This document shows positions 36,003 to 36,060 of a stretch of DNA of 64,000 nucleotides, piece by piece. The notes beneath the pieces are model-generated. The model ran no database searches and was not told the DNA's origin. It saw only the letters and a list, made by a program, of their open reading frames with translations. A program made the translations under genes and the position numbers. Positions within the stretch are counted from its first letter, which is position 1; the number at the start of each line of letters is the position of its first letter. Origin of the DNA: a virus (lineage: Duplodnaviria > Caudoviricetes); the IMG/VR virus record IMGVR_UViG_3300035180_001680; one strand, 5' to 3'.

Positions 36003-36060
36003 TGGTGGACGATACGAGAATCGAACTCGTATTGCCCGTCAGCAGCAACCATCATGCCCC
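36003..36060 (-). ncRNA. Ala-type minihelix / tmRNA-TLD-like mini RNA
   Basis: GGGCAAT-ACGAG-TTCGATT-CTCGT-ATCGTCC-ACCA with G3-U70. Confidence 0.55.

Follow-up and report, generated by a model that had tools for sequence, protein, structure and literature searches.

Results

An alanine-type element inside a phage tRNA operon

The DNA analyzed here, which we call the window, is a stretch of 64,000 nt belonging to a 179-kb record of an uncultured virus that is 52% complete (CheckV). This giant phage also encodes RIIA and RIIB and carries 38 tRNA genes, all found on the minus strand by ARAGORN. Along that strand the locus runs from a promoter-like site and a terminator hairpin through two tRNA-Pro genes, tRNA-Ala(UGC), an AU-rich hairpin, a 58-nt element that we call element B and tRNA-Glu, and is followed by further tRNAs and tRNA-like genes of the same operon. 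Given the promoter-like site and the terminator hairpin upstream, the sequence places element B inside the tRNA transcription unit. A first-pass annotation had located a natural alanine minihelix within the tRNA array, and this location is borne out. The AU-rich hairpin in front of element B was not scored as a terminator in a terminator scan. The features of the locus are as follows.

36651-36623, minus strand: promoter-like site at the upstream end of the tRNA array
36451-36421, minus strand: terminator hairpin upstream of the tRNA array, after the promoter-like site
36093..36172, minus strand: tRNA-Ala(UGC) (ARAGORN; Rfam 36.5 bits), now directly adjoining the spacer hairpin
36091..36101, minus strand: 11-bp direct repeat GCTCCACCAAA, single copy left, with 51 bp missing here relative to sister strains
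36061..36092, minus strand: AU-rich 10-bp hairpin, spacer between tRNA-Ala and element B
36003..36060, minus strand: element B, 58 nt, made of a 5' acceptor strand, a connector, an internal GGGCAAU, a T arm, a 3' acceptor strand and ACCA
36054..36060, minus strand: 5' strand GGGGCAU of B (from the pair table and the RF04321 alignment of contig L010)
36044..36053, minus strand: GAUGGUUGCU, connector resembling a D-loop analogue and one strand of the predicted helix P2
36041, minus strand: U20, a C in every other strain seen
36031..36037, minus strand: internal GGGCAAU, 5' strand of the minihelix in the window strain
36014..36030, minus strand: T arm ACGAG / UUCGAUU / CUCGU, which folds and was aligned with the T arm of tmRNA models
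36003..36013, minus strand: 3' acceptor strand AUCGUCC, discriminator A73 and encoded CCA (from sequence and fold)

The same operon holds other unusual pieces. A second orphan tRNA 3' half lies at the operon end (35404-35432, minus strand), with a T arm AGGG/UUCGAUU/CCCU, the strand ACGAGUA, a discriminator A and CCA; no matching 5' strand was found within the operon. ARAGORN also misses 2 tRNA-like genes on the minus strand, one at 35790-35859 (24.3 bits, with a short anticodon loop and no CCA) and one at 35643-35717 (32.6 bits, a second GAA (Phe)-type tRNA). Farther away, a tRNA with anticodon CUA at 50908-50981 (minus strand; 63.9 bits with the tRNA model) is an amber suppressor labeled Pyl by ARAGORN, raising the question of whether TAG is reassigned or suppressed in this phage. 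A transposase gene (52805-54028, plus strand; phrog_506, E 1.5e-112) lies on the opposite strand within the tRNA-rich region. We also found a Ro60/TROVE protein gene (46996-48498; phrog_850, E 5e-136) and, about 1 kb from it, a full-length GOLLD RNA (49463-49908, minus strand; RF02032, 198.8 bits, E 1e-54).

Element B folds as a minihelix in the window strain

On the minus strand (36060-36003), element B reads GGGGCAU GAUGGUUGCUGCUGAC GGGCAAU ACGAG UUCGAUU CUCGU AUCGUCC A CCA. Its last 35 nt (36037-36003) form a hairpin of 7 + 5 bp, that is, a 12-bp acceptor/T stack with a UUCGAUU loop, A73 and CCA. The acceptor pairs are G1-C72, G2-C71, G3·U70, C4-G69, an A5·C68 mismatch, A6-U67 and U7-A66. 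With a minimum free energy (MFE) of -14.9 kcal/mol, this fold takes up 95% of the ensemble, compared with a mean of -5.3 for shuffled sequences (z = -4.67), and none of 200 shuffled sequences folded as well. The anatomy described at first pass, a 12-bp hairpin with one A-C mismatch, a TTCGATT loop, G1-C72, G2-C71, G3-U70, A73 and CCA, is thus confirmed. Minihelices with a G3·U70 pair are substrates of alanyl-tRNA synthetase (AlaRS), and acceptor/T minihelices are textbook minimal synthetase substrates. The window minihelix carries the whole alanine identity set (G3·U70, A73 and CCA on a 7-bp acceptor stem with a T arm) and has the layout of minihelix-Ala apart from the single A·C mismatch at 5:68.

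The two ends of the complete element do not close on each other. GGGGCAU and AUCGUCC form 5 of 7 pairs, position 4:69 being G·G and 5:68 being C·C, and the probability of the G1-C54 pair in the B ensemble is 0.00, so that an acceptor stem made of its own ends, as in a TLD-only RNA, is absent. The 3' strand of the upstream tRNA-Ala offers GGGGCAU 5 of 7 pairs as well, and that strand is already engaged.

We also looked at element B with tRNA and tmRNA models. It was called neither by ARAGORN nor by the Rfam tRNA model; RF00005, searched up to E 10, matched nothing between 36003 and 36060, and a cloverleaf with D and anticodon arms was not found. Global alignment of the 58 nt to the tmRNA model RF00023 gave 15.1 bits, below the gathering threshold of 47 bits, and aligned the ends only. 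The same model gives the phage's 2 real tRNA-Ala genes 18 and 32 bits, which indicates that the match of B reflects alanine-type ends and not tmRNA ancestry. The 23 nt upstream of the minihelix had been said to echo a tmRNA 5' end loosely. The resemblance (GGGGC..GAUGG..GACGGG) exists but is not specific, and a specific tmRNA reading of this flank was rejected, as the tRNA-Ala genes outscore it. Moreover, these 23 nt have no room for a tag reading frame with a resume codon or for pseudoknots. Neither an SmpB gene nor an AlaRS gene was found in the 179-kb, 52% complete record.

Sister strains carry a second gene, A, that is missing in the window

Relatives of the locus were reached through the flanking 214-aa protein, which led to Logan contigs from other sequencing runs. 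One of them (L011) equals the window sequence across the whole locus. Another (L010) is 95-99% identical to the window, differs from it at 3 of the 58 nt of B, and is 51 nt longer in the interval from tRNA-Ala to the spacer hairpin, the surplus being AAU followed by a 48-nt gene that we call A (L010:538-585). Gene A reads GGGUGAU UCGGGUGGCUAAG GCGGG UUCGAUU CCCGU AUGCUCC A CCA. By sequence, A and B are paralogues that share the T loop and the outer acceptor pairs, but A has diverged: its connector is shorter and its T stem differs from that of B. The 51 nt are bounded by two copies of the 11-bp repeat GCTCCACCAAA, one closing tRNA-Ala at its 3' end and the other closing A.

Four DNA sequencing runs (X1-X4) were mapped on the locus. 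Gene A was absent from X1 (51x), which may be the sample that the window came from, and present in X4 (212x). X2 contained both junctions, at 4.1x with A and 6.1x without, and X3 contained an A-less junction at 4.5x together with a variant insert at 3.9x. Between 36101 and 36091, runs X3 and X4 have 40 extra letters. As both junction types occur across these runs, the A-bearing and A-less forms are real and coexist, in at least two samples. No A-like copy was found elsewhere in the 179-kb record (52% complete).

As A has diverged from B while the flanks of the strains are nearly identical, a recent loss of A in the window lineage by a 51-bp deletion between the 11-bp repeats would be far more economical than a recent insertion, a polarity that we infer from these sequences without an outgroup. 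Since A-less strains reach 51x, A is dispensable, which fits a neutral, decaying locus too. The locus comes close to the refuting case envisaged at first pass, that the hairpin is just the 3' half of a deleted tRNA, but the deleted piece would be the partner RNA A and not a tRNA 5' half.

The strains differ at 3 of 58 nt in B, 0 of 87 in tRNA-Glu, 0 in the aligned part of tRNA-Pro and 2 of 80 in tRNA-Ala. The higher count in B would fit either relaxed constraint or re-shaping, the numbers being small. The A-keeping strains have, in tRNA-Ala(UGC), a G to A change in the 3' anticodon-stem strand that produces a C·A mismatch, and a variable loop shorter by 1 nt (window 36132/36124). A 14-bp tandem duplication, ACCAAAGTTTGTAA, lies at 35992, directly after B, in L010, L012 and runs X2-X4, and repeats the ACCA end.

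Outside this phage population we found no relatives. Exact and degenerate patterns for B, for the A-hairpin-B junction and for a short GGGG..T-loop..CCACCA element had no relative in IMG/VR viral contigs; such pattern scans gave 8 matches in JGI metagenomes, corresponding to 3-4 unrelated sequences, and 5 matches in GTDB genomes, all unrelated. Blastn against GenBank phages returned tRNA-level matches only, and a related-locus search with the flanking 214-aa protein or RIIA returned no relatives. A homologue search with a spurious ORF spanning the junction returned L010 alone.

The acceptor strands of A and B pair crosswise

We compared the pairing of the acceptor strands within and between the two genes. 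In cis, A and B each give G-C, G-C, G·U, mismatch, mismatch, A-U and U-A, that is, 5 of 7 pairs with 4:69 and 5:68 broken. Crossed, both stems are complete: GGGGCAU of B pairs with AUGCUCC of A (7/7), and GGGUGAU of A, or its variant GGGCGAU, pairs with AUCGUCC of B (7/7), each time with G3·U70. With A73-CCA and G3·U70 on both swapped stems, the alanine identity set is also present in the sister strains. The discriminating positions are 4:69 and 5:68 only; there, all 4 pairs fit trans and none of the 4 fits cis, a crossed pattern with a random expectation of 0.005. Among the phage's own tRNA pairs, reciprocal 7/7 pairing occurs in 0 of 820.

The variant of A in run X3 differs from that of L010 by two changes. 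U4 to C turns U4·G69 of the outer stem into C4-G69, and G15 to A turns G15·U13 into A15-U13 in P2, the helix predicted by RNAcofold between the connectors (nt 11-18 of A with nt 10-17 of B). For this variant, unconstrained RNAfold gives a two-headed structure as the MFE (-53.3 kcal/mol), with probabilities of about 1.0 for the outer stem and about 0.9 for the inner stem. Cofolding the variant as two pieces predicts the same structure at -43.5 kcal/mol, versus -31.3 for the separate monomers. For L010, RNAfold gives the inner stem a probability of 0.6-0.75 and the outer stem one of 0.02; here the MFE structure pairs the CCA end and beats the swapped fold by 2.5 kcal/mol.

Model searches on L010 point the same way for gene order, at scores below threshold. 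RF04321 (tmRNA_permuted) gave 28.1 bits, below its gathering threshold of 47. The alignment runs from the T arm of A through its 3' strand, ACCA and the loop to GGGGCAU and GAUGGUU, and contains no non-canonical stem pair. In the window, where the 3' end of tRNA-Ala replaces A, the scores are 18-22 bits. Beta_tmRNA (RF01850) gave 25.2 bits on L010, against a gathering threshold of 84, and ARAGORN called no tmRNA there, with a tag frame being absent. In the sister strains the spacer hairpin caps the inner acceptor helix, where a permuted tmRNA gene has its intervening segment. As for an SmpB-binding D-loop analogue and P2, GAUGGUU fits the permuted tmRNA consensus (the GAUGGUUGCU region matches aAaUGGuU), and P2 is a thermodynamic prediction only; by cofold, its strand at 36044..36053 would pair with nt 11-18 of A in the sister strains, and it has no partner in the window. 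The modeled evidence for the swapped fold is consistent across the pairings and the variant but thin, since the comparison covers one phage population and the covariation amounts to four discriminating pairs and two substitutions, one of which was read in a contig covered at 3.9x.

These data also bear on whether the locus is decaying tRNA/tmRNA debris, in which A and B would be pseudogenes or fragments of a recombining array whose cross-pairing stems from ancestry or gene conversion and serves no function. The array is indeed rich in non-canonical pieces, such as those at 35404-35432 and 35790-35859; indels at short repeats have occurred (the 51-bp deletion and the 14-bp tandem duplication), A can be dispensed with, and A and B are clear paralogues. 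Shared ancestry, though, should leave the strands pairing in cis no worse than in trans, whereas all four discriminating pairs fit trans (p ~0.005). In addition, the swapped fold gains from each of the two changes in the variant A, and neither the canonical T loops nor the alanine identity set nor either CCA end has decayed. We therefore regard the debris reading as distinctly improbable.

Two private substitutions favor the minihelix in the window strain

U20 and U30 (36041, 36031) occur only in the window and X1, and all other strains have C20 and G30. The change of G30 to U completes the U7-A66 pair of the minihelix, and that of C20 to U weakens a GCC/GGC hairpin which sequesters G2-C4 of the minihelix 5' strand. 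In isolated B, the predicted probability of the minihelix stem goes from 0.30 with C20/G30 to 0.99 with U20/U30, the single changes giving 0.82 or 0.97. X3 has A-less junctions, and all X3 contigs over sites 20 and 30 carry C20/G30; from this co-occurrence, in contigs that are unphased, U20/U30 probably followed the deletion.

The claim of a natural minihelix can be weighed against these strains. Its anatomy and CCA stand in the window, but in the sister strains the stem has 5 of 7 pairs and takes up 30% of the ensemble, while the 3' strand pairs 7/7 with A. This better partner in the relatives, together with the minority status of the minihelix fold there, argues that the window copy is an orphaned half and not a purpose-built minihelix. 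One could still propose that B is a stand-alone functional alanine minihelix, whose 23-nt leader would be cut by RNase P and which would be charged by host AlaRS and act as a tag-less TLD mimic or decoy for SmpB, EF-Tu or defense enzymes that recognize acceptor ends. Its alanine identity set is perfect, its CCA is encoded and it sits within a regulated tRNA operon. Both private substitutions favor the stem (0.30 to 0.99), as if selection had re-shaped B after the loss of A; the strain is abundant (51x), junctions lacking A were seen again in two further samples, and inhibition of tmRNA by a TLD-only RNA is on record (PMC4131195). We nevertheless consider this proposal unlikely: two substitutions are too few for selection to be read from them, the element is not conserved outside this phage population (IMG/VR, JGI metagenomes, GTDB, GenBank phages), the record of 179 kb has neither an SmpB nor an AlaRS gene, and elsewhere the stem is the 5/7 minority fold whose 3' strand is better served by A.

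Proposed origin of element B

Our preferred explanation, to which we give a probability of about 0.6, is that B is what is left of an alanine-type tRNA/TLD mimic built from two strand-swapped pieces; it would still be transcribed and would now fold as a minihelix with a leader, its function being reduced, lost or changed. In the complete form, A (48 nt), the AU hairpin and B (58 nt) would be transcribed together with the tRNAs. The 5' strand of A would close on the 3' strand of B, and the 5' strand of B on the 3' strand of A, each 7-bp stem stacking on its own T arm, carrying G3·U70 and A73 and ending with an encoded CCA. This would produce two 12-bp acceptor/T stacks, each ACCA-ended, joined through the short shared helix P2, and the parts of the inner head would be arranged as in the gene of a permuted tmRNA that lacks a tag. 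The hairpin loop would probably be cut out by RNase P and 3' trimming, for which two-piece tmRNA and YrlA of M. smegmatis offer precedents. The product would be a duplex of 48 + 58 nt with two alanine-acceptor ends and neither anticodon nor tag frame, in other words a non-decoding tRNA/TLD mimic.

In the window strain, the 51-bp deletion between the 11-bp repeats would have removed A. B may still be produced from the tRNA operon, having lost both of its partners, and its 3' strand would fall back on the internal GGGCAAU. With the two private substitutions, B is predicted to fold almost wholly as a 35-nt G3·U70 minihelix behind a 23-nt leader. If active, it could serve as a substrate or decoy for readers of the acceptor/T half, such as RNase P, the CCA enzyme, AlaRS or EF-Tu. 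Most likely, the window B is a remnant with reduced or lost function.

A bolder version of this explanation holds that A:B is an undescribed two-piece, two-headed tRNA mimic and that the A-less strains are re-shaping B into a free alanine minihelix; we advance it as a tentative and somewhat doubtful combination. If it were true, one complex would present two CCA alanine-acceptor ends on a shared central helix, and the window form would give the classic synthetic AlaRS substrate its first counterpart in nature. A strand-swapped mimic encoded by two genes would widen the known design space of tRNA mimics, and the coexistence of strains with and without A would offer a ready-made knock-out comparison. 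Anticodon-less alanine-accepting RNAs (tmRNA TLDs, TLD-only phage genes) feed or interfere with ribosome rescue. The locus also carries a warning, as 'minihelix' or 'TLD-only' calls in phage arrays may be halves of larger RNAs that become visible through neighbors or sister strains.

Comparison with known tRNA mimics

The synthetic minihelix-Ala resembles the window fold. Acceptor/T hairpins of this kind were reportedly established as AlaRS substrates by Francklyn and Schimmel in 1989. The 35-nt fold would be a natural form of it, with the same 12-bp stack, G3·U70, A73 and CCA, and it departs from the synthetic molecule by the A5·C68 mismatch, by the 23-nt 5' leader and by being a fallback fold after partner loss.

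Known tmRNA forms include 72 classified as 'permuted, no CDS' (mainly mitochondrial) and 9 as 'standard, no CDS' (PMC11915505). The TLD-only gene of phage DS6A is among the latter (tmRNA Website 11587; PMC11915505, PMC4131195), and a molecule of the TLD-only type has been reported as a tmRNA inhibitor (PMC4131195). B resembles the DS6A gene in being phage-encoded, about 60 nt long and equipped with an alanine-type acceptor stem, a T arm and CCA, with no tag frame and no pseudoknots, and it has the tmRNA-like 5' motif described above. The difference lies in the stem, which in the DS6A type is closed by the RNA's own two ends, whereas B needs gene A or, in the window, the internal surrogate strand. 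By analogy, a tag-less TLD-type mimic remains the nearest functional comparison.

In the sister strains, the likeness extends to permuted two-piece tmRNA, in the order of elements from the T arm to GAUGGUU and in the joining of two RNAs through the acceptor stem and P2. Here, however, the 'coding piece' is just 58 nt long, and its 3' part is a further T arm with an acceptor strand and CCA; in the window the acceptor piece is deleted. For such a second alanine head, which pairs with the 5' end of the 'acceptor piece', there appears to be no precedent among the described tmRNAs that we compared.

YrlA of M. smegmatis has a loop-closed 7-bp acceptor stem and is cut by RNase P in vivo into two associated pieces, one of them CCA-tailed (PMC4201824). 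The complete A-B form similarly has a loop-closed 7-bp acceptor stem beside a T arm, and the phage has a Ro60 gene too. One may thus ask whether the locus is a Y-RNA-like Ro60 ligand of the YrlA type, in which the loop-closed inner stem and T arm would be a tRNA-like module tethering Ro60 and nucleases. Apart from the Ro60/TROVE protein encoded by the phage and the inner-head topology shared with M. smegmatis YrlA (PMC4201824), the evidence goes against it. RF02553 matched neither the window (gathering threshold) nor L010 (E up to 10). A and B lack a D arm, a helix motif for Ro60 binding and a GNCGAA-type strand that could bind Ro60. Known YrlA genes sit next to the Ro60 gene (rsr), but here the locus is 11 kb away from it. 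YrlA in turn has no alanine identity set, and both this set and a second CCA-ended head are foreign to it. We judge a Ro60 ligand very improbable.

A small protein gene among the tRNA genes and a more distant relative

A 79-aa ORF (33961-34200, minus strand) lies in the tRNA region, 1.8 kb downstream of B, and has a weak match to the AlaRS family PF01411 (positions 386-429, E 0.087). Its family comprises 359 cluster representatives of 60-150 aa, which are small phage proteins among tRNA genes. Weak PF01411 matches were found in 37 of the 75 members tested (best E 9.6e-6). The profile built from the family covers residues 393-424 of E. coli AlaRS, the stretch with Tyr399, Asp400 and Gly403, which read G3·U70 (PMC6055181). 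The AF2 model of the 79-aa protein is a confident five-helix bundle (pLDDT 95.6). Structural searches with Foldseek (pdb) and VIA (pdb_via_wide) returned no significant match, AlaRS included, and phmmer against the PDB returned no AlaRS match either. The protein is possibly an acceptor-stem-binding mini-protein, the AlaRS link being a weak sequence-profile lead.

Relatives of the 79-aa ORF in L029 and L033 likewise lie among phage tRNA genes. L033 is a more distant relative, with a homologue 51% identical to the 79-aa protein. It contains a tRNA-like gene in which two hairpins are of the T-arm type and a proper anticodon loop is missing (L033:1093-1183), and a 124-aa ORF with an RF-1 domain, ArfB-like, inside its tRNA array (L033:1589-1963).
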